Position numbers and translations under genes: made by a program. Below, piece after piece: positions 3,526 to 24,232 of a stretch of 32,620 nt of DNA. The DNA is from a virus (taxonomy: Duplodnaviria > Heunggongvirae > Uroviricota > Caudoviricetes). Each line of letters begins with the position of its first letter. The first letter of the stretch is position 1. Location: IMG/VR virus record IMGVR_UViG_2861048470_000001. The stretch is one strand, 5' to 3'. Below the pieces are notes generated by a model. It ran no database searches and had not been told where the DNA came from. It saw only the letters and a program-made list of their open reading frames with translations.

Positions 3526-5782
3526 AGCCTCCGGGCGTTTTGTCCCTCCGTCAGCATTTGCCGCAGGCACCGGTAAGGCGCTTACCGGTGCTTATGCATG
3601 GAACGCGCCACGCGAGGCTGTCGGGCGCGAAAGACCCCTTACACGTGACGAGATGCGTCAGGTGCAAGGTGTTTTATCCACGATTAACCGCCTGCCTTAC
3701 TTTTTGCGCTCGCTGTTTACTTCACGCTATGACTACATCCGGCGCAATAAAAGCCCGGTGCACGGGTTTTATTTTCTCACATCCACTTTTCAGCGTCGTT
3801 TATGGCCGCGCATTGAGCGTGTGAATCAGCGCCATGAAATGAACACCGACGCGTCGTTGCTGTTTCTGGCAGAGCGTGACCATTATGCGCGTCTGCCGGG
3901 GATGAATGACAAGGAGCTGAAAAAGTTTGCCGCCCGTATCTCATCGCAGCTTTTCATGATGTATGAGGAACTCTGCGATGCCTGGGTGGATGCGCATGGC
4001 GAAAAAGAATCGCTGTTTACGGATGAGGCGCAGGCTCACCTCTATGGTCATGTTGCTGGCGCTGCACGTGCTTTCAATATTTCCCCTCTCTACTGGAAAA
4101 AATACCGTAAAGGGCAGATGACCACGAGGCAGGCATATTCTGCCATTGCCCGTCTGTTTAACGATGAGTGGTGGACTCATCAGCTTAAAGGCCAGCGTAT
4201 GCGCTGGCATGAAGCGTTACTGATAGCTGTCGGGGAGGTCAATAAAGACCGTTCTCCTTATGCCAGTAAACACGCCATTCGTGATGTGCGTGCGCGCCGC
4301 CAGGCAAATCTGGAATTTCTTAAATCGTGTGACCTTGAAAACAGGGAAACCGGCGAGCGCATCGACCTTATCAGTAAGGTGATGGGCAGTATTTCTAATC
4401 CTGAAATTCGCCGGATGGAGCTGATGAACACCATTGCCGGTATTGAGCGTTACGCCGCCGCAGAGGGTGATGTGGGGATGTTTATCACGCTGACTGCGCC
4501 GTCAAAGTATCACCCGACTCGTCAGGTCAGAAAAGGCGAAAGTAAAACCGTTCAGCTTAATCACGGCTGGAACGATGAGGCATTTAATCCAAAGGATGCG
4601 CAGCGTTATCTCTGCCGCATCTGGAGCCTGATGCGCACGGCATTCAAGGATAATGATTTACAGGTCTACGGTTTGCGTGTCGTCGAGCCACACCACGACG
4701 GAACGCCGCACTGGCATATGATGCTTTTTTGTAATTCGCGCCAGCGTAACCAGATTATCGAAATCATGCGTCGCTATGCGCTCAAAGAGGATGGCGACGA
4801 AAGAGGAGCAGCGCGAAACCGTTTTCAGGCAAAACACCTTAATCGGGGCGGTGCTGCGGGGTATATCGCGAAATACATCTCAAAAAACATCGACGGCTAT
4901 GCACTGGATGGTCAGCTCGATAACGATACCGGCAGACCTCTGAAAGATACTGCCGCGGCTGTTACTGCATGGGCGTCAACGTGGCGCATCCCGCAATTTA
5001 AAACGGTTGGTCTGCCGACAATGGGGGCTTACCGTGAACTACGCAAATTGCCTCGCGGCGTCAGCATTGCTGATGAGTTTGACGAACGCGTCGAGGCTGC
5101 ACGCGCTGCCGCAGACAGTGGCGATTTTGCGTTGTATATCAGTGCGCAGGGTGGGGCAAATGTTCCGCGCGATTGCCAGACTGTCAGAGTCGCCCGTAGC
5201 CCGTCGGATGAAGTTAACGAGTACGAGGAAGAAGTCGAGAGAGTGGTCGGCATTTACGCGCCGCATCTCGGCGCGCGTCATATTCATATCACCAGAACGA
5301 CGGACTGGCGCATTGTGCCGAAAGTTCCGGTCGTTGAGCCTTTGACTTTAAAAAGCGGCATCGCCGCGCCTCGGAGTCCTGTCAATAACTGTGGAAAGCT
5401 CAACGGTGGTGATACTTCGTTACCGGCTCCCACACCTTCTGAGCACGCCGCAGCAGTGCTTAATCTGGTTGATGACGGTGTTATCGAATGGAATGACCCG
5501 GAGGTTGTGAGGGCGCTCAGAAGCGCATTAAAACACGGCCTGAGAAGACCAAACCGTCAGCAAAGAAACGGAAGCCCGTTAAAACCACATGAAATTGCAC
5601 CATCGGCCAGACTGACCCGGTCGGAAAGAATGCAAATCACCCGTATCCGCGTTGACCTTGCTCAGAACGGTATCAGGCCGCAGCGATGGGAGCTTGAGGC
5701 GCTGGCGCGTGGGGCAACAGTAAATTATGACGGGAAAAAATTCACGTATCCGGTCGCTGATGAGTGGCCGGGATTCATATAA
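3515..5782 (+). CDS. A: Replication initiation endonuclease A (rolling-circle HUH Rep)
   Basis: Large ORF with an HUH-type motif (TPHWHMMLF) and downstream tyrosine-rich region (AAGYIAKYISKN). The ATG at 3515 (MAVKAS...) gives about 755 aa, close to P2 gpA; the ORF-track start at 3473 would overlap the previous gene more deeply. Confidence 0.9.
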   Translation: MAVKASGRFVPPSAFAAGTGKALTGAYAWNAPREAVGRERPLTRDEMRQVQGVLSTINRLPYFLRSLFTSRYDYIRRNKSPVHGFYFLTSTFQRRLWPRIERVNQRHEMNTDASLLFLAERDHYARLPGMNDKELKKFAARISSQLFMMYEELCDAWVDAHGEKESLFTDEAQAHLYGHVAGAARAFNISPLYWKKYRKGQMTTRQAYSAIARLFNDEWWTHQLKGQRMRWHEALLIAVGEVNKDRSPYASKHAIRDVRARRQANLEFLKSCDLENRETGERIDLISKVMGSISNPEIRRMELMNTIAGIERYAAAEGDVGMFITLTAPSKYHPTRQVRKGESKTVQLNHGWNDEAFNPKDAQRYLCRIWSLMRTAFKDNDLQVYGLRVVEPHHDGTPHWHMMLFCNSRQRNQIIEIMRRYALKEDGDERGAARNRFQAKHLNRGGAAGYIAKYISKNIDGYALDGQLDNDTGRPLKDTAAAVTAWASTWRIPQFKTVGLPTMGAYRELRKLPRGVSIADEFDERVEAARAAADSGDFALYISAQGGANVPRDCQTVRVARSPSDEVNEYEEEVERVVGIYAPHLGARHIHITRTTDWRIVPKVPVVEPLTLKSGIAAPRSPVNNCGKLNGGDTSLPAPTPSEHAAAVLNLVDDGVIEWNDPEVVRALRSALKHGLRRPNRQQRNGSPLKPHEIAPSARLTRSERMQITRIRVDLAQNGIRPQRWELEALARGATVNYDGKKFTYPVADEWPGFI

Positions 5783-5900
5783 ACTGAAATGAACAGCGTT
5801 GCAAGTGTGATAAAAATCATTATACTGTTTTTATATACAGTACTTTAATCTGGAAAGATGCTATAAATGTATATTTCTATAAAAATATATGGTTTATTGA

Positions 5901-5929
5901 TTGTGTATGCTCACTATCAAATTTATACT
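5901..5929 (+). promoter_or_regulatory. Candidate sigma70 promoter for the accessory module (TTGTGT-17 bp-TATACT)
   Basis: Read by eye in the AT-rich spacer upstream of the 6060 gene. Weak -35, good -10. Not validated. Confidence 0.3.
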
Positions 5930-6059
5930 CCGCGCGCAATGTTGAGTATGCTTAAGATATAGCGTTTACAATTCCAGGCTTGAAGGCTCGGGTATAGGTA
6001 AAAATTGAGTGTTCTCGGTTGCTTTTCGTGACATAAGAGGACAGCAAAGGAGGTTGAGT

Positions 6060-6530
6060 ATGTACAGCCCATTGAACATCGCGAATAAGTTTATAGAACT
6101 TGCTTGCGCGGCTGGTATGCCAATCACCCAGATGCAGGCACAAAAGCTGACCTATATAGCACATGGTATAAATCTGGGTTACAAAGGGACGCCTTTGTTA
6201 ACGACACCAGTTTGTGCATGGCGTTATGGTCCAGTGGTTCCAGTTCTGTATAACTATCTTAAAGTTTATGGCCGTAGTCCCATAACACAACCAATACAAG
6301 TTCCATCGGCAATTTCTCAGGAGTTTGACCCTATGACTGAGCAGTTGCTGCAGAACGTTTATAACGTTTACGGTAAATATACCGCTGAGGATTTATCTGC
6401 TTTCACACATCGTGAAGGTACTCCTTGGAAGCAAGCAATGGATAGTCGTATGGATATCATTCCTGATTCCGTTATTCAGGATTACTATCAAAAGCTGCTA
6501 CACGGCGATAGCAATTGCATCGGACTATGA
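6060..6530 (+). CDS. Panacea-domain (DUF4065, SocA/GepA-like) protein; candidate antitoxin
   Basis: About 156 aa from the ATG at 6060, preceded by AAGGAGG. Sequence KLTYIAHGINLGYKGTPLLTTPVCAWRYGPVVPVLYNYL fits the Panacea pattern as I recall it (K.L.Y.A....G.PL....AW..GPV...Y). AT-rich. Confidence 0.65.
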   Translation: MYSPLNIANKFIELACAAGMPITQMQAQKLTYIAHGINLGYKGTPLLTTPVCAWRYGPVVPVLYNYLKVYGRSPITQPIQVPSAISQEFDPMTEQLLQNVYNVYGKYTAEDLSAFTHREGTPWKQAMDSRMDIIPDSVIQDYYQKLLHGDSNCIGL

Positions 6531-6545
6531 GTCCGAATTAAGATA

Positions 6546-6570
6546 ACCCCGTCTATGTACGGGGTTTTTT
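6546..6570 (+). terminator. Rho-independent terminator-like hairpin plus T6
   Basis: ACCCCGT-ctatgt-ACGGGGT followed by TTTTTT; the next ORF's ATG follows immediately at 6571. Confidence 0.6.
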
Positions 6571-7143
6571 ATGCCTGACGATAATAAGAAAGTGACAGCT
6601 GAATTTGATAAAGACCTTCTCAGACGATTGCAGCAAGCTGAGCAGAATCTGATAACTGCCTCTGCGGCTTTGGGAGATGAGGGCTGTTGGGATGAAGAAT
6701 CTCATGAGCCTGAGTCTGTTGAGGACGCTGTTGATGAAATGCAAAAGGAAGAAGAGGATGCTGCGACCATGCAGCGTTTGGATTTATCCAGTCTTAATTT
6801 TCAAATTGCTGAATTGAGTCGCTGTGTTGAAACTATAAGCACTAACCTTGAAAGCGTACAGGCAGAAACCAAAAGAAAAAATGCGGAAACCGACGGCCTG
6901 CTTACGGACAATGAGCTCCGTAGAACTATGGCTGATAAAACATATCAATTCATGATTGTTTGGTGTTGTTTTGTCGGCTGGGTCATATTTATGTATGTAT
7001 TGAAAAAAGATTTTGATCCACCAGAAACAATTATCATTGCGCTTATGGGAACCACAACTGTGAGTATTGTGGGATTGGTTGGGTTTGTTGTTAGTGGTTT
7101 GTTCAAAAGCAACAATAAACCTTCTGGCGACAATAAAAATTAA
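6571..7143 (+). CDS. Acidic coiled-coil protein with two C-terminal transmembrane helices; candidate membrane toxin/effector partner of the Panacea protein
   Basis: 190-aa ORF; N-terminal half charged and helical (LLRRLQQAEQNL..., EEDAATMQRL...); C-terminal hydrophobic stretches YQFMIVWCCFVGWVIFMYVL and IIIALMGTTTVSIVGLVGFVVSGLF. Start uncertain: an internal in-frame ATG (MQRLDL...) has a GAGGA upstream. Confidence 0.6.
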   Translation: MPDDNKKVTAEFDKDLLRRLQQAEQNLITASAALGDEGCWDEESHEPESVEDAVDEMQKEEEDAATMQRLDLSSLNFQIAELSRCVETISTNLESVQAETKRKNAETDGLLTDNELRRTMADKTYQFMIVWCCFVGWVIFMYVLKKDFDPPETIIIALMGTTTVSIVGLVGFVVSGLFKSNNKPSGDNKN

Positions 7144-7152
7144 TCATCAAAG

Positions 7153-7178
7153 TGGCACCTTTGGGTGCTATTTTTTTG
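7153..7178 (+). terminator. Rho-independent terminator closing the accessory module
   Basis: GCACC-tttg-GGTGC hairpin followed by a T7 run, just after the 7143 stop. Confidence 0.55.
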
Positions 7179-7330
7179 CTTTTTCCGCGATTTCTCTGTT
7201 TTTTCCGTGCATCATTTGGTGCATGAGTTTGAATGTGCTTTAGTCTAGCTCACTTGCTTTCTGCTGCCAATGCTAGCTAGGTTTGACGGTGTTCATGCAA
7301 CTGCATTAAAACCGACCCATGAAGCGGGCG

Positions 7331-7349
7331 GGCGAGGCGGGGAAAGCAC
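7331..7349. other. cos: cos site (19-nt cohesive-end sequence GGCGAGGCGGGGAAAGCAC)
   Basis: Exact 19-mer that I recall as the P2 cohesive end, located between the accessory locus and Q as in P2. Confidence 0.6.
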
Positions 7350-7490
7350 TGCGCGCTGGCGGTGGTGCTGATTTTATTTTTTCAGCGTCTGAGCGCGTCG
7401 TGATGGCGTTTAGATTGTGCGCCGGGGCGTTGGTGTGTCTGCGGGCTGTTTTGTGCGGTGGTGAGCGTGTGAGGGCGTGATGACGGGGGG

Positions 7491-7513
7491 TAAAAAAGCC
7501 GCCCGCAGGCGGC
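7491..7513 (-). terminator. Rho-independent terminator downstream of Q (minus strand)
   Basis: GCCGCC-cgca-GGCGGC hairpin; on the minus strand it is followed by a T-run (plus-strand AAAAAA at 7492-7497). Confidence 0.55.
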
Positions 7514-7518
7514 GATGT

Positions 7519-8553
7519 TCAGCCGTTGTCAGTGTCCAGTGAGTAGTTTTTAAAGCGGATGACCTCCTGACCGAGCCAGCCGTTTATCTCGCGGATCCTG
7601 TCCTGTAACGGGATAAGCTCATTGCGGACAAAGACCTTTGCCACTTTCTCAATATCACCCAGCGACCCGACGTTCTCCGGCTTGCCGCCCATCAACTGAA
7701 AAGGGATGCGGTGCGCGTCCAGCAGGTCTGCGGCGCTGGCTTTTTTGATATTAAAAAAATCGTCCTTCGTTGCCACTTCACTGAGCGGGATAATTTTAAT
7801 GCCGTCGGCTTTCCCTTGCGGGGCATAGAGAAACAGATTTTTAAAGTTGTTGCGGCCTTTCGACTTCACCATGTTTTCGCGGAGCATTTCGATATCGTTG
7901 CGATCCTGCACGGCATCAGTGACGTACATGATGTATCCGGCATGTGCGCCGTTTTCGTAATACTTGCGGCGGAACAGCGTGGCTGACTCATTCAGCCAGG
8001 CAGAGTTAAGGGCGCTGAGATATTCCGGCAGGCCGTACAGCTCCTGATTAATATCCGGCTCCAGCAGATGAAACACGGAGCCGGGCGTGAAAGGTGTCGG
8101 CTCGTTGAAGGACGGCACCCACCAGTAAACATCCTCCTCCACGCCACGGCGGGTATATTTTGCCGGTGAGGTTTCCAGTCTGATGACCTTACCGGTGGTA
8201 CTGTAACGCTTTTCCAGAAACGCATTACCGAACACCAGAAAATCCAGCACAAAGCGGCTGAAATCCTGCTGGGAAAGCCACGGATGCGGGATAAATGTCG
8301 AGGCCAGAATATTACGTTTGACGTAAATCGGTGAGCTGTGATGCACGGCAGCACGCAGGCTTTTTGCCAGACCGGTAAAGCTGATCGGTGGCTCATACCA
8401 TCTGCCGTTACTGATGCACTCGACGTAATCCAGAATGTCACGGCGGTCGAGTACCGGCACCGGCTCACCAAAGGTGAATGCTTCCATTTTCGGGGCGCTG
8501 GCGGTCATTGTTTTTGCCGCAGGTTGCGGTGTTTTCCCTTTTTTCTTGCTCAT
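7519..8553 (-). CDS. Q: Portal protein Q
   Basis: 344-aa ORF, same length and position as P2 gpQ; start overlaps the P stop. Confidence 0.9.
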   Translation of the reverse strand: MSKKKGKTPQPAAKTMTASAPKMEAFTFGEPVPVLDRRDILDYVECISNGRWYEPPISFTGLAKSLRAAVHHSSPIYVKRNILASTFIPHPWLSQQDFSRFVLDFLVFGNAFLEKRYSTTGKVIRLETSPAKYTRRGVEEDVYWWVPSFNEPTPFTPGSVFHLLEPDINQELYGLPEYLSALNSAWLNESATLFRRKYYENGAHAGYIMYVTDAVQDRNDIEMLRENMVKSKGRNNFKNLFLYAPQGKADGIKIIPLSEVATKDDFFNIKKASAADLLDAHRIPFQLMGGKPENVGSLGDIEKVAKVFVRNELIPLQDRIREINGWLGQEVIRFKNYSLDTDNG

Positions 8554-16770: not shown

Positions 16771-17556
16771 TTATGAGTGATTTTTATTTGATGCTTTGTA
16801 TTCTAAAACCTTCTTATTGGCGTAAAAGAATTTTGTATATGACAGGAATATAACCAGACCTGAAGTGAAATAGACGAGGGATAGTATTAATAATGCTTTT
16901 TTGTGACTGTTATTATCTTTAATCTCCTGGCTTAACCATTCGGAGTCCTCCTCGTTTAGCTGTAAGAGCTTATTGCAGGCGATTTCAGGAAGTGTGTCTT
17001 TTATAAATACGTTTTGCAGTCTCTTGCAATCGGCAAGGCTATAAGTTTTATTAAATTCAACTGCTTTATTTTTGAAGGATAAAAGAACTTTGTCACTATA
17101 AACATAGTACATCATATTTTTATATGGTATGCCTATGGCATCTCTTACTATAGCGGATTGTTTGTTGTGTATATAACATGCGAAGAGAATATAAATAATA
17201 CTGGCCAGAATTACAATTGTTGTTTTAATTATGTGTGGTGGTTTTGTTATGTCACCCCAGATGCGAGTAAGGAAAAAATACGATGTTTTTAGTTTTCCAT
17301 CAATCAGTCCCTGCTGTATCATTCTCACATTTTCAATGCCTGATACATTGATTCCGTTAATTATTTTAAATAGTTGAATGTCGCGCCACTCGCGGTCAAG
17401 TCTTTTTAATTTTTTGTCTGAATATCCAAAATTGAAATAATGTGCAATAAGCCTCATAAGGTTACTTTTACCAAAGCTAAAAAATGCTAATACTGCAAAG
17501 CTACAAAGGAAAAAAACGATTAGCCCCCACACATTAGTCACATTATAGCTGACCAT
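16771..17556 (-). CDS. Accessory membrane protein with three predicted transmembrane helices, unknown function (P2 orf30 position)
   Basis: 261-aa ORF on the strand opposite to the flanking tail genes; strongly AT-rich; hydrophobic segments near residues 9-28, 120-140 and 225-245; no motif I recognise. Confidence 0.65.
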   Translation of the reverse strand: MVSYNVTNVWGLIVFFLCSFAVLAFFSFGKSNLMRLIAHYFNFGYSDKKLKRLDREWRDIQLFKIINGINVSGIENVRMIQQGLIDGKLKTSYFFLTRIWGDITKPPHIIKTTIVILASIIYILFACYIHNKQSAIVRDAIGIPYKNMMYYVYSDKVLLSFKNKAVEFNKTYSLADCKRLQNVFIKDTLPEIACNKLLQLNEEDSEWLSQEIKDNNSHKKALLILSLVYFTSGLVIFLSYTKFFYANKKVLEYKASNKNHS

Positions 17557-20065: not shown

Positions 20066-22315
20066 ATGAGCACAAAATTCAAAACCGTTATCACTACTGC
20101 CGGTGCAGCAAAGCTGGCAGCGGCAACCGCGCCGGGAGGGCGGAAGGTCAACATTACCACGATGGCCGTCGGGGATGGCGGTGGTAAATTGCCTGTCCCG
20201 GATGCCGGACAGACCGGGCTTATCCACGAAGTCTGGCGACATGCGCTGAACAAAATCAGTCAGGACAAACGAAACAGTAATTATATTATCGCAGAGCTGG
20301 TTATTCCGCCGGAGGTGGGCGGTTTCTGGATGCGTGAGCTTGGCCTGTACGATGATGCTGGAACGTTAATTGCCGTGGCGAACATGGCCGAAAGTTATAA
20401 GCCAGCCCTTGCCGAAGGCTCAGGGCGTTCGCAGACCTGCCGCATGGTCATCATCGTCAGCAGTGTGGCCTCAGTGGAGCTGACCATTGACACCACAACG
20501 GTGATGGCAACGCAGGATTACGTTGATGACAAAATTGCAGAACATGAACAGTCACGACGTCACCCTGACGCCTCGCTGACCGCAAAAGGTTTTACTCAGT
20601 TAAGCAGTGCGACCAACAGCACGTCTGAAACACTGGCTGCAACGCCAAAGGCGGTTAAGGCCGCATATGACCTTGCTAACGGGAAATATACCGCACAGGA
20701 CGCTACCACCGCGCGAAAAGGCCTTGTTCAGCTCAGTAGTGCGACTAACAGCACGTCTGAAACGCTCGCCGCAACGCCGAAAGCGGTAAAGGCAGCATAT
20801 GACCTTGCTAACGGGAAATACACTGCACAGGATGCCACAACAGCGCGAAAAGGCCTTGTTCAGCTCAGTAGCGCCACCAACAGCGATTCTGAAACGCTTG
20901 CGGCAACGCCAAAGGCGGTTAAGACAGCATATGACCTTGCTAACGGGAAATACACTGCACAGGATGCCACCACGGCGCGAAAAGGTCTTGTCCAGCTCAG
21001 TAGCGCCACCAACAGTGATTCTGAAACGCAGGCTGCAACGCCAAAGGCGGTGAAGTCTGCCTATGACAATGCTGAAAAACGTCTTCAGAAAGATCAGAAC
21101 GGTGCGGATATCCCTGATAAAGAACGCTTCCTGAGTAACATTAATGTTTACAGCAAAGGTGAAGTGGATAAGAAAAAGGGAATGCGAAAGTATTCGTTTG
21201 CAGCCCCTGCAAATGTCGTTGCCGGGAAGTGGTACCCCGTTATCTTTCGCCGTGCTGCCAGCCTTTCAGGAGAAATGGCATCCCGCGTTGTTATTTCCAC
21301 TGGTTGTTATAACGGCGATTATGTAATGAATAACTGCGAGTTTAATGGCATGGTTATGCCCGGAGGCTGGACTGATCGTGGTTCATATGCGGCAGGTTAT
21401 TTCTGGACGTATCAGACTAATGAGCGTTCAATCCATTCCATTGTTACAAGCCTGAAAGATGATGATGTATGTAGTGTTTTTTATGTTGAAGCCAGAGCTT
21501 TCCCTGTACAAATTCTTGCAGAGGAAGGGCTAACGGTTATTGTTCCGACAGAGGATTATGTCGTCGGTCAAACGACATATAAGTGGGGGGCAACTAATCC
21601 CGCTACAGAAAGCACGAACGCACAGGCTATTCTGGATTTTAAAAATGGACGTGGTTATTACTGTTCACATCCATTTATTTCCAGCCTTTCAGGAAATGCT
21701 GCAACAGCAACGAAGTTAGCGAACGCAAGAAATATTAATGGTGTCAGATTTGATGGCTCTGCCGATATAAATATTAATACACTGGTATCCAGAAACCGTG
21801 TTAATGCATTAGGTGGGAGCGTAAAGGGGACACCAGGTATTCAGATGTATGAGGCATACAACAATGGCTACCCAACAGCCTATGGTAATGTGCTTCATCT
21901 CACTGGCGTAACCGCAGTAGGAGAGGGTGAGTTACTTATTGGCTGGAGTGGAACCAGCGGTGCTCATGCTCCGGCATATATTCGTTCCCGACGAGATACC
22001 ACAGATGCTAACTGGTCTGGATGGGCGCAACTATATACAACTGCTCATAAACCCTCAGCGGGAGATGTTGGTGCATACACCAAAACTGAGTCAGATTCAC
22101 GTTATGTGAGAGACATGCGGCTGGGCGGTGCATCTACATATAAACCAGCAAATAATGGTACTACATGGACGCATCAGGCTCCGTCAGGTTGCGTATATAC
22201 CGGCATTATTGTTCAGGATACCGGCTCAAACTCTGCCGATAACATTGGTGGCGTATATTACAGACCGGTGCAGAAATACATTAACGGGACATGGTATAAC
22301 GTGGCGCAGGTATAA
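20066..22315 (+). CDS. H: Tail fibre protein H
   Basis: 749 aa; conserved N-terminus; internal tandem phage-fibre repeats; divergent, AT-richer C-terminal region. Confidence 0.9.
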   Translation: MSTKFKTVITTAGAAKLAAATAPGGRKVNITTMAVGDGGGKLPVPDAGQTGLIHEVWRHALNKISQDKRNSNYIIAELVIPPEVGGFWMRELGLYDDAGTLIAVANMAESYKPALAEGSGRSQTCRMVIIVSSVASVELTIDTTTVMATQDYVDDKIAEHEQSRRHPDASLTAKGFTQLSSATNSTSETLAATPKAVKAAYDLANGKYTAQDATTARKGLVQLSSATNSTSETLAATPKAVKAAYDLANGKYTAQDATTARKGLVQLSSATNSDSETLAATPKAVKTAYDLANGKYTAQDATTARKGLVQLSSATNSDSETQAATPKAVKSAYDNAEKRLQKDQNGADIPDKERFLSNINVYSKGEVDKKKGMRKYSFAAPANVVAGKWYPVIFRRAASLSGEMASRVVISTGCYNGDYVMNNCEFNGMVMPGGWTDRGSYAAGYFWTYQTNERSIHSIVTSLKDDDVCSVFYVEARAFPVQILAEEGLTVIVPTEDYVVGQTTYKWGATNPATESTNAQAILDFKNGRGYYCSHPFISSLSGNAATATKLANARNINGVRFDGSADININTLVSRNRVNALGGSVKGTPGIQMYEAYNNGYPTAYGNVLHLTGVTAVGEGELLIGWSGTSGAHAPAYIRSRRDTTDANWSGWAQLYTTAHKPSAGDVGAYTKTESDSRYVRDMRLGGASTYKPANNGTTWTHQAPSGCVYTGIIVQDTGSNSADNIGGVYYRPVQKYINGTWYNVAQV
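20585..21076 (+). repeat. Four tandem copies of a 132-bp (44-aa) repeat inside H
   Basis: Units start at 20585, 20717, 20849 and 20981, each encoding KG(L/F)(V/T)QLSSATNS(T/D)SETLAATPKAVKAAYDLANGKYTAQDATTAR; the fourth is truncated and divergent. Copies differ at synonymous sites. Confidence 0.85.
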
Positions 22316-23185: not shown

Positions 23186-24232
23186 GTGATATTTTCTACA
23201 AAGAAAAATATATGGAATAACGTCATCGCGGGTACAAAAATGACTATAAAAAAAACATATGTAACACCAACAGAAATAGTGAAATATTTTTATGACAAAC
23301 CGGAAAACGATAACGTAAAAGAGAGAAAAACAATTGAGAGCCTGACCCGTCTCAAACCTGAGTGGGAAAATACTCTCGATATGATGAAGTTAATACGCAA
23401 TTGTGAAAAGCTAGCAACTGAAGGTATTTTAATGGAATTATCTTCAGGACATACTCTTTTGGACCGTTGCTATTTCGCACCGAATTTCAATGAATCAGAT
23501 GCGAAATATGGAAAGTATGATTTTATAGCTGATGGATTTGAGTCAATCATAGACCGCCTTAGTCCTTCCGTTTTACCTGTTGTTGTTGAAAAAAGTGATG
23601 GTTCACATGATCTTGGTACTAGTTTTATTGTTGGGAATAACCACACGATATTTACAGCCAGACATGTTATTGAAGACATGAAGAGTATCAGGATACTTAG
23701 AGCTGGTGGTGAGGCTTTACCAATACATAAAATCTTTGTATCTAACGATGAACGTATTGATATCGCTTTAGTTTTCACAACCATTCCGAATGAAGATAAT
23801 ATTCAACCACTTAAGGTCTCAACCAAAGCCTCGGTACTGGATGAAATTTTATCAATAGGATTTCCACCCATTCCAGGATTTGATGCATTAAAGTTATATG
23901 ACGTTTCGCATATAAATTCGTTTGTCCGACTGTCAAAGGGGCGAATTGTTGGTTCTGGTCACTCTTACTTAGATTCACAAGACTTTTTATTATTCAATGC
24001 TAGGGTTAAGGGGGGGAATAGCGGTGGCCCTATAATTAACAAATACGGCTTTGTTGTTGGTATGCTTGTACAAATACCAATATCATCTGAGGACAGTTCA
24101 AAGATTGATAACCTTGGATATGGTATAGCTGTAACAGGAAAAAGCCTGCTGGATGCCATTACATTTACAGAAAATGGCCGCGAATTAACACTCACCGACC
24201 GAGGAAATGGAGAATATTCAACTCTAGCATAA
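23186..24232 (+). CDS. Trypsin-fold (S1-like) serine protease with an N-terminal domain of unknown function; accessory gene at the Z/fun locus
   Basis: ORF with a His-Asp-Ser triad in chymotrypsin order and spacing: TARHV (His), DIALV (Asp), GGNSGGP (Ser). AT-rich. Start is either GTG at 23186 or ATG at 23240. Confidence 0.7.
   Translation: MIFSTKKNIWNNVIAGTKMTIKKTYVTPTEIVKYFYDKPENDNVKERKTIESLTRLKPEWENTLDMMKLIRNCEKLATEGILMELSSGHTLLDRCYFAPNFNESDAKYGKYDFIADGFESIIDRLSPSVLPVVVEKSDGSHDLGTSFIVGNNHTIFTARHVIEDMKSIRILRAGGEALPIHKIFVSNDERIDIALVFTTIPNEDNIQPLKVSTKASVLDEILSIGFPPIPGFDALKLYDVSHINSFVRLSKGRIVGSGHSYLDSQDFLLFNARVKGGNSGGPIINKYGFVVGMLVQIPISSEDSSKIDNLGYGIAVTGKSLLDAITFTENGRELTLTDRGNGEYSTLA

Follow-up and report, generated by a model that had tools for sequence, protein, structure and literature searches.

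Our analysis of a 32,620-nucleotide (nt) stretch of caudoviral DNA (IMG/VR record IMGVR_UViG_2861048470_000001, analyzed at its full length and called the window below) indicates that a two-gene unit at positions 5783-7178 is a PanAT type II toxin-antitoxin (TA) cassette that a P2-like prophage carries as cargo in its accessory gpA-cos slot, and that this cassette is possibly repressed by LexA and induced by DNA damage, and probably arranged so that the antitoxin is made in excess. We assign this reading as a whole a probability of roughly 0.8. The gene pair is in itself ordinary, being a diverged copy of a validated and already catalogued module rather than a new class of system. What seems to be new is the strict PanA-first pairing (62 of 62 loci), a covarying hairpin between the two genes, and a candidate LexA box upstream of them, an operator that is apparently unreported.

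The gene pair and its validated relative

The window is a complete P2-like prophage, running from integrase to ogr, and an identical copy occupies the cpxP/fieF interval of Escherichia coli strain 120899. Its immunity is of the P2 type (C, Cox), it has no tum, and it carries a full P2 lysis cassette of its own (holin, endolysin, lysB, lysC). An earlier note, made from the letters of the window, had picked out an AT-rich two-gene unit with its own terminator in the P2 tin/old slot, and this description proved exact in its coordinates: the GC content of 5783-7178 is 40.5%, versus 53% for gpA and Q, and the low-GC island between the gpA stop and the portal gene Q holds two plus-strand open reading frames (ORFs), at 6060-6530 and 6571-7143, followed by a terminator-like hairpin (dG -15.1, z -4.8). 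In phage P2 (AF063097) the genes orf91, tin and old occupy the interval from A to cosR; since the two ORFs sit between the end of gpA and cos, the cassette fills the slot of those P2 genes. The cos sequence of the window, GGCGAGGCGGGGAAAGCAC, is the same 19 nt as the annotated P2 cosR, and the block around cos is kept in all related loci. The features are collected in Table 1.

The upstream gene, panA, was thought from the outset to encode a Panacea (DUF4065) fold, and the Pfam check agrees: its product matches PF13274 (SocA_Panacea) with an E-value of 1.4e-17 and 65.1 bits (gathering score 25.7) over profile positions 2-113 of 113. The RefSeq name of the protein is 'Panacea domain-containing protein', and it matches phrog_1281 at E 1e-47; a sequence search of the PDB gave no match. 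The AAGGAGG ahead of the panA ATG is invariant in a four-locus alignment.

The downstream gene, panT, had been described as encoding an acidic coiled-coil protein that ends in two transmembrane (TM) helices, of which the acidity and the membrane segments stand. PanT has a net charge of -16, with 31 Asp and Glu to 14 Lys and Arg in residues 1-125, and hydrophobic segments at about 126-146 and about 152-178, where Kyte-Doolittle means over 19 residues reach 2.1. The coiled coil is another matter. An AlphaFold2 model built with 43 homologues places helices at 5-34, 60-145 and 152-180 and leaves the acidic linker 35-59 disordered, with a mean predicted local distance difference test score (pLDDT) of 60.8 and values of 72-86 over residues 111-170, that is, moderate confidence for the C-terminal module only; PanT is helical in this model, which does not demonstrate a coiled coil.

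PanT is laid out as a variable acidic N-terminal part (residues 1-108), which by its predicted topology would be cytoplasmic and within reach of PanA, and a conserved module (109-180) made of a pre-TM helix and a two-TM hairpin. Across the 43 homologues (29-86% identical) 33 positions are invariant, all of them within residues 109-178. Among these, the helix preceding TM1 contributes G109, D113, N114, L116, R117, M120 and A121, TM1 itself W131 and C132, and TM2 the run SIVGLVGFVVSGLF. The N-terminal part is highly variable. PanT matches phrog_26171 over its full length, and a profile search with the PanT alignment against 1.84 billion representatives returned 439 clusters at E <= 1e-3, most of which are proteins of 110-160 residues that share the C-terminal module alone, without the acidic N-terminal domain. 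Because the invariant positions fall in it and most of the matching clusters share it alone, the conserved C-terminal module is the predicted effector of PanT. The RefSeq name of the gene, DUF2975 (PF11188), was tried and rejected, as the match reaches 22.1 bits versus a gathering score of 27 and aligns over the TM region 127-179 alone.

Both genes have a laboratory-tested counterpart. Kurata et al. (2022) validated nine PanA-PanT pairs, among them WP_000287252.1/WP_000019185.1 of the Shiga toxin-producing E. coli (STEC) O31, whose toxin falls in cluster T3 (PMC8832971). According to its description, this PanT combines a charged N-terminal region with TM helices at the C-terminus; its expression halts transcription, translation and replication together, it depolarizes the membrane and admits SYTOX Green, which the authors read as the formation of large pores, and its toxicity is neutralized by its PanA (PMC8832971). 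Stable PanA:PanT complexes were found in all five pull-down pairs, the membrane-toxin pairs not being among them, and PanATs were classed as type II (PMC8832971). In a Bartonella PanAT, mutagenesis shows that the Panacea domain contacts the stretch immediately preceding the TM helices (PMC10440598).

We found the exact validated pair adjacent in E. coli STEC1588. The window PanA is 45% identical to the validated PanA over its full length (E 1e-45), and residues 86-180 of the window PanT are 44% identical to the validated PanT over 95 residues (E 1e-27). Judged by these alignments, the cassette is a diverged copy of the validated E. coli PanAT and belongs to the T3 membrane-toxin group of Kurata et al. 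The suggestion in the earlier note of a toxin-antitoxin pair with a membrane-depolarizing toxin is thus supported by the homology of both genes.

The pairing is also strict. The 72 relatives of panT in a large protein database come from Escherichia, Salmonella, Buttiauxella, Scandinavium, Cronobacter, Enterobacter, Klebsiella, Pantoea, Serratia, Pectobacterium and Providencia, and in every one of the 62 loci with enough upstream sequence (33 distinct pairs) a PanA homologue of 153-171 residues lies directly upstream of the PanT homologue. Most of them are gpA-Q hotspots in P2/186-like prophages, the hosts being Escherichia, Salmonella, Cronobacter and Enterobacter; others lie at one end of lambdoid (Shiga toxin, or Stx, type) STEC prophages, and one, in a lambdoid prophage of Providencia, is flanked by Q and the holin gene. 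PanA and PanT identities drop in step (79/66, 49/40 and 45/32%), as expected of co-inherited cognate partners. Of 5426 complete E. coli genomes, 11 carry the cassette itself at 99.5% identity or more; a megablast search of it against a phage collection gave no match, and tblastn of PanT against the same collection found lambdoid STEC-type copies only. At one related locus (L064, positions 4001-4102; related loci are given here by L numbers) we saw an isolated remnant coding for the last 34 residues of PanT only, 82% identical, with no PanA or PanT ORF detected, which looks like a decayed copy.

Table 1. Features of the cassette and its borders (window positions; a dot marks features given without a strand)
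Feature	Position	Strand	Basis or remark
gpA (replication gene A), end	stop at 5782		followed directly by P1
Promoter-like site P1, TTGCAA-16-TATACT	5799-5826	+	promoter scan; right after gpA stop
Candidate LexA (SOS) box, TACTGTTTTTATATACAGTA	5823-5842	.	overlaps P1 -10 TATACT (5821-5826)
Weaker promoter-like element P2, TTGTGT-17-TATACT, then GC-rich CCGCGCGC	5901-5929	+	tentative
Shine-Dalgarno sequence of panA, AAGGAGG	6047-6053	+	read from sequence
panA, stand-alone Panacea-domain antitoxin, 156 aa, WP_000287234.1	6060-6530	+	PF13274
Intergenic hairpin, 8 bp, AACCCCGT/ACGGGGTT, GC-rich, then six T's abutting panT ATG	6545-6570	+	terminator scan
panT, putative membrane toxin, 190 aa, WP_001112381.1	6571-7143	+	homology to validated PanT, hydropathy, AlphaFold2 model
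Intrinsic terminator closing cassette (predicted)	7149-7185 (hairpin 7149-7174)	+	11-bp stem, T-run
cos cohesive-end sequence	7331-7349	.	right edge of cargo slot
Portal gene Q	7519-8553	-

Candidate control elements

Two elements that the earlier note had passed over, the LexA box and the intergenic hairpin, bear on how the pair may be controlled. P1 is the sole plus-strand promoter-like site found by a scan of 5600-7600, and the Salmonella and IMG/VR relatives L004, L015 and L016 have an identically placed -35/-10 pair of the same arrangement. The candidate LexA box on the -10 of P1 has 18 of 20 matches to the LexA consensus taCTGtatatatataCAGta, used as quoted in PMC7556043, and no second site of this kind occurs in the 32.6-kb window. 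All P2/186-like panAT loci examined whose sequence takes in the end of gpA have one LexA-like box, 15-160 nt past the gpA stop, and the validated lambdoid copy has a sigma-70 promoter scoring 12/12 with, about 15 nt on, the LexA box CCTGTGTATATGTACAGT. When sites with at least 14 of 20 matches were counted outside the 600 nt upstream of panA, 287 kb of related loci yielded nine LexA-like boxes, one per locus in nine P2/186-like loci, and the box was the gpA-proximal one in all seven that were re-examined. We found no paper linking LexA with Panacea or PanAT.

Could the box simply belong to the P2 backbone? We rejected this explanation on the evidence of six close P2-type phages with other cargo, P2, P2_AC1, L-413C, pro147, fiAA91-ss and P2_2H4, whose gpA 3' ends are 95-97% identical to that of the window and which have no LexA box between A and cos. 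The segment 5783-6059 is, moreover, not common to any other E. coli cargo.

Farther downstream, the weaker element at 5901-5929 scores 8/12, below the threshold of the scan; its position is kept in the window, L004, L015, L016 and L017, and its counterpart in L008 reads TTGATT-17-TATAAT. A 31-codon leader-peptide ORF at 5867-5962 was considered and rejected, given that the Salmonella locus L004 has a stop codon just before the shared block coding for YQIYTP. Since the L004 ORF does not encode this block, its conservation is at the DNA level and probably marks a promoter, not a gene.

The region between box and genes is elaborated in some relatives. In L006-L010, L026, L027 and L029 the LexA box is separated from panAT by an ORF of 62-63 codons, a DinI-like gene or both, and L032 has the DinI-like gene only, which suggests that in those P2/186-like phages the small ORF, the dinI-like gene, panA and panT form a composite SOS operon. 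In the leader of the validated lambdoid copy the main box is followed by two more LexA-like sites, which are weaker (14/20; L002, 3943-3962 and 4024-4043) and of which one is 37 nt before the panA ATG; L003, L037 and L074 have the same. The two weaker sites may allow cooperative repression.

Between the two genes the RNA is predicted to fold into the hairpin of Table 1 with -16.8 kcal/mol (z -3.0). Among 18 distinct P2-hotspot copies all 144 of 144 pair cells are standard pairs, and six of the eight pairs have changed on both sides; none of 500 shuffles reaches the observed values, and sliding one arm lowers pairing to 57% or less. The hairpin is absent from the lambdoid copies, where there is a 22-25-nt spacer with an ordinary Shine-Dalgarno (SD) sequence. 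In the window the sole SD-like bases for panT, GGGG, lie in the 3' arm. Because the T-run touches the panT start codon and the 3' arm hides these bases, we infer that the hairpin is a putative attenuator that would lower toxin synthesis relative to that of the antitoxin by partial termination, by occlusion of the ribosome-binding site, or by both. A search of 5700-7520 against Rfam in E-value mode gave a sub-threshold PhrS match alone (18 versus 37 bits), which we take as chance.

Proposed mechanism and rival explanations

How might such a cassette work? By homology, PanT would be a small inner-membrane protein whose C-terminal module, the pre-TM helix with its glycine-rich hairpin of two helices, depolarizes and permeabilizes the membrane. 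PanA, made from the upstream gene with its strong ribosome-binding site, would bind the cytoplasmic part of PanT and neutralize it directly, and the conserved hairpin would keep PanT below PanA. Transcription would start at least partly from P1, whose -10 is covered by the putative LexA box, an arrangement suggested by the sequence and by comparison with related loci. In the resting lysogen the cassette would then be repressed, and DNA damage would switch it on, both proteins rising; the unit is thus possibly SOS-inducible. What the prophage gains is a matter for speculation: a cassette that, under certain conditions, stops the lysogen from growing or kills it might serve abortive infection, the exclusion of competing or SOS-induced phages, or a damage-triggered dormancy like that of TisB and DinQ.

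Several observations weigh against this picture. Identity to the validated pair is just 45% for PanA and 32% overall for PanT, with the N-terminal 85 residues of PanT not alignable. The Providencia copy is without a LexA box, and in the window the box lies 237 nt upstream of panA, leaving between them the second conserved promoter-like element, which could provide LexA-independent expression. With an ORF or a DinI-like gene interposed in several lineages, panAT may also be riding behind the SOS promoter of another gene. Finally, PADLOC-DB v2.0.0 gave no match to panA and, for panT, a best E of 0.052 with the CARF_TM model, and in the literature consulted we found no report of phage defence by any PanAT pair.

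The last two points bear equally on the possibility, in our view a rather unlikely one, that the cassette is a dedicated anti-phage abortive infection system, in which PanA senses an infecting phage and releases PanT, and the cell dies before the phage cycle is completed. This overlaps with an SOS-induced toxin-antitoxin cassette, from which it differs in that defence would be the selected function and a phage product, not SOS, the trigger. The anti-phage suggestion of the earlier note was a guess from location, and the location does favor defence: the cassette lies in the gpA-gpQ hotspot that holds old, tin and other validated defence systems (PMC9122126), the neighbors in related loci are reverse transcriptases and a type I restriction-modification-like pair, and many genes of unknown function in P2/P4 hotspots prove defensive. 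Ernits et al. (2023) proposed Panacea as a sensor, its activating cue being 'as yet unknown', and showed defence for RosmerTA, which is a different membrane-toxin TA and not a PanAT (PMC10440598). However, the same hotspot also holds non-defence cargo, such as partition systems and cdt, the pair is not, under these names, among the systems that Rousset et al. (2022) list as evaluated, and a functional LexA box would mean silence until SOS, a poor fit with a constitutively poised sensor. Expression is likewise the difficulty with an addiction or stabilization module, which would have no role in phage-phage conflict and would penalize loss of the prophage or guard the slot from replacement. Such a role is the classical one for type II TAs on mobile elements (PMC8832971), and it is in keeping with strict inheritance as a pair with its own control elements and with the presence of the cassette at the edges of several unrelated prophage types; yet post-segregational killing needs steady expression in the lysogen, while LexA seems to repress the main promoter, loss of an integrated, non-inducible P2-type prophage is a rare event, and the cassette is rare (11/5426) and swapped among backbones rather than fixed. 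We regard this role as doubtful.

We give very little weight to two further schemes. PanA could, as in SocAB, a type VI system, serve as an adaptor that delivers PanT to ClpXP for proteolysis instead of blocking it directly. The Panacea domain is named after SocA, and the NCBIfam model SocA_antitoxin aligns with residues 2-144 of PanA at E 4.9e-28, but its 98 bits are far under the equivalog cut-off of 190, on which we rejected PanA as a SocA equivalog; the partner, moreover, is a two-TM membrane protein without a match to SocB and not a SocB-like clamp binder, and Kurata et al. saw stable complexes in the five pull-down pairs, among which membrane-toxin pairs were not included, and class PanATs as type II (PMC8832971). 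It is just as improbable that PanT is a holin or pinholin and PanA its inhibitor, used to time lysis upon induction of the prophage or of a neighbor. Two TM helices in PanT, pore formation by the tested relative, the SOS control to which the LexA box points and the one copy between antiterminator Q and holin in a Providencia lambdoid prophage would all suit this role, but the prophage has its own lysis genes, the cassette lies in an early or accessory region and not in the late operon, and known holins have nothing like the long acidic N-terminal domain. Prophages of the P2 type, besides, are not known to be SOS-inducible.

Returning to the LexA-repressed toxin-antitoxin cassette, we consider one extension of it, tentatively and at somewhat less than even odds: the enterobacterial PanAT lineage as a whole would be a LexA-controlled 'SOS suicide or dormancy' cassette that moves between prophages together with an SOS promoter resembling p95 of phage 186 (see below) and a built-in attenuator by which the toxin:antitoxin ratio would be set. 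If so, a non-inducible P2-type prophage would be using the DNA-damage signal of its host to depolarize that same host, aborting the burst of SOS-induced rival prophages or of SOS-triggering phages, or else driving a damage-tolerant dormancy, and this would be the first physiological trigger for PanAT systems. With a putative LexA operator standing before the lineage, including the laboratory-tested copy, an SOS trigger is directly testable. More generally, our analysis raises the question of whether SOS-controlled cargo between gpA and cos, such as 186 orf97, the DinI-like genes and PanAT, is a functional theme.

Other cargo and comparison with known systems

The window holds further cargo. 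At 23240-24232 (+), between the tail-fibre assembly and tail sheath genes, in what we take to be the Z/fun cargo slot of P2, lies a possible second accessory or defence gene of this prophage. It encodes a 330-residue trypsin-like S1 peptidase (PF13365, 65 bits), which in PADLOC matched the RT-Protease, LmuA and HamA models through the protease domain only. A 261-residue ORF (WP_000255498.1) at 16771-17556 (-), antisense between a virion morphogenesis gene and the baseplate gene V, matched neither Pfam nor PADLOC and is a third piece of cargo, with no function assigned. The tail-fibre ORF at 20066-22315 (+) is single and intact, with 749 codons; for the corresponding stretch of strain 120899, RefSeq has two incomplete pseudogene pieces. 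Repeats containing TGCATG (GTGCAT...GGTGCATGA...CATGCA..TGCATTAAAACCG) at 7195-7330 run into cos; they are also found just after panT in L004 and L007-L009, and such repeats before cos are common to P2 and every related locus. Cargo can lie on either side of cos, since L006 and L008 have a gene for a reverse transcriptase between the cos-like block and the portal gene.

The cassette has been catalogued before. For the survey by Rousset et al. (2022) of what lies between gpA and gpQ in P2-like prophages of E. coli, Table S5 lists 'DUF4065 + hypothetical', WP_000287234 + WP_001112381, for NZ_CP025862, NZ_CP025910 and others (PMC9122126), genomes that belong to the 11 found here. This entry is the very cassette of the window; it was catalogued only, with no link to PanAT and no regulatory features described. 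Neither 'DUF4065' nor the two accessions appear in the table of evaluated systems, and the text names other tested systems, so the pair was apparently not tested there. The view in the earlier note that this pairing was undescribed at this locus must be given up, both for this reason and on account of the T3 membership. An uncharacterized hotspot entry is now tied to a known pore-forming effector, which makes it a candidate for phage challenge.

The STEC O31 pair resembles that of the window in its antitoxin-first order, in its sizes (157 and 182 residues, here 156 and 190), in its stand-alone Panacea antitoxin, in being prophage-borne, in a toxin with a charged N-terminal part, two C-terminal TM helices and the identical TM2 motif SIVGLVGFVVSGLFKS, and in a LexA box adjoining the promoter. 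However, its place is not the P2 gpA-cos slot but the end of a lambdoid (Stx-type) prophage next to the attachment site, its genes are separated by a 22-nt spacer with an SD sequence where the window has a 40-nt spacer with the terminator-like hairpin, the N-terminal 85-100 residues of the two toxins are not alignable, and its LexA box is just downstream of a consensus promoter and not on the -10.

A parallel in arrangement is the SOS operon of phage 186. In the record of this phage (U32222) the SOS promoter p95, its -10 covered by a LexA site, is followed by tum, t95a (a partial terminator), orf97 and the terminator t95b, with the annotation for orf97 that 'expression from plasmid blocks 186 infection'. 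As in the window, this operon lies directly after gene A and before cos; its LexA site falls on the promoter -10, and its two cistrons are split by a partial terminator and closed by a final one, as is predicted for the cassette here. Its second product interferes with phage infection when expressed. The genes, in contrast, are unrelated: orf97 is not similar to PanT, and tum encodes an antirepressor. Prophage induction is triggered by the operon in 186, whereas the prophage of the window has P2-type immunity and lacks tum.

In E. coli itself, TisB and DinQ, which belong to type I TA systems, are SOS-induced membrane toxins. With them the proposed cassette would share a LexA-controlled small inner-membrane toxin that depolarizes the cell. 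Their antitoxins, however, are RNAs and their genes chromosomal, while the cassette of the window is phage cargo with a protein as antitoxin and a far larger toxin that has a cytoplasmic domain.

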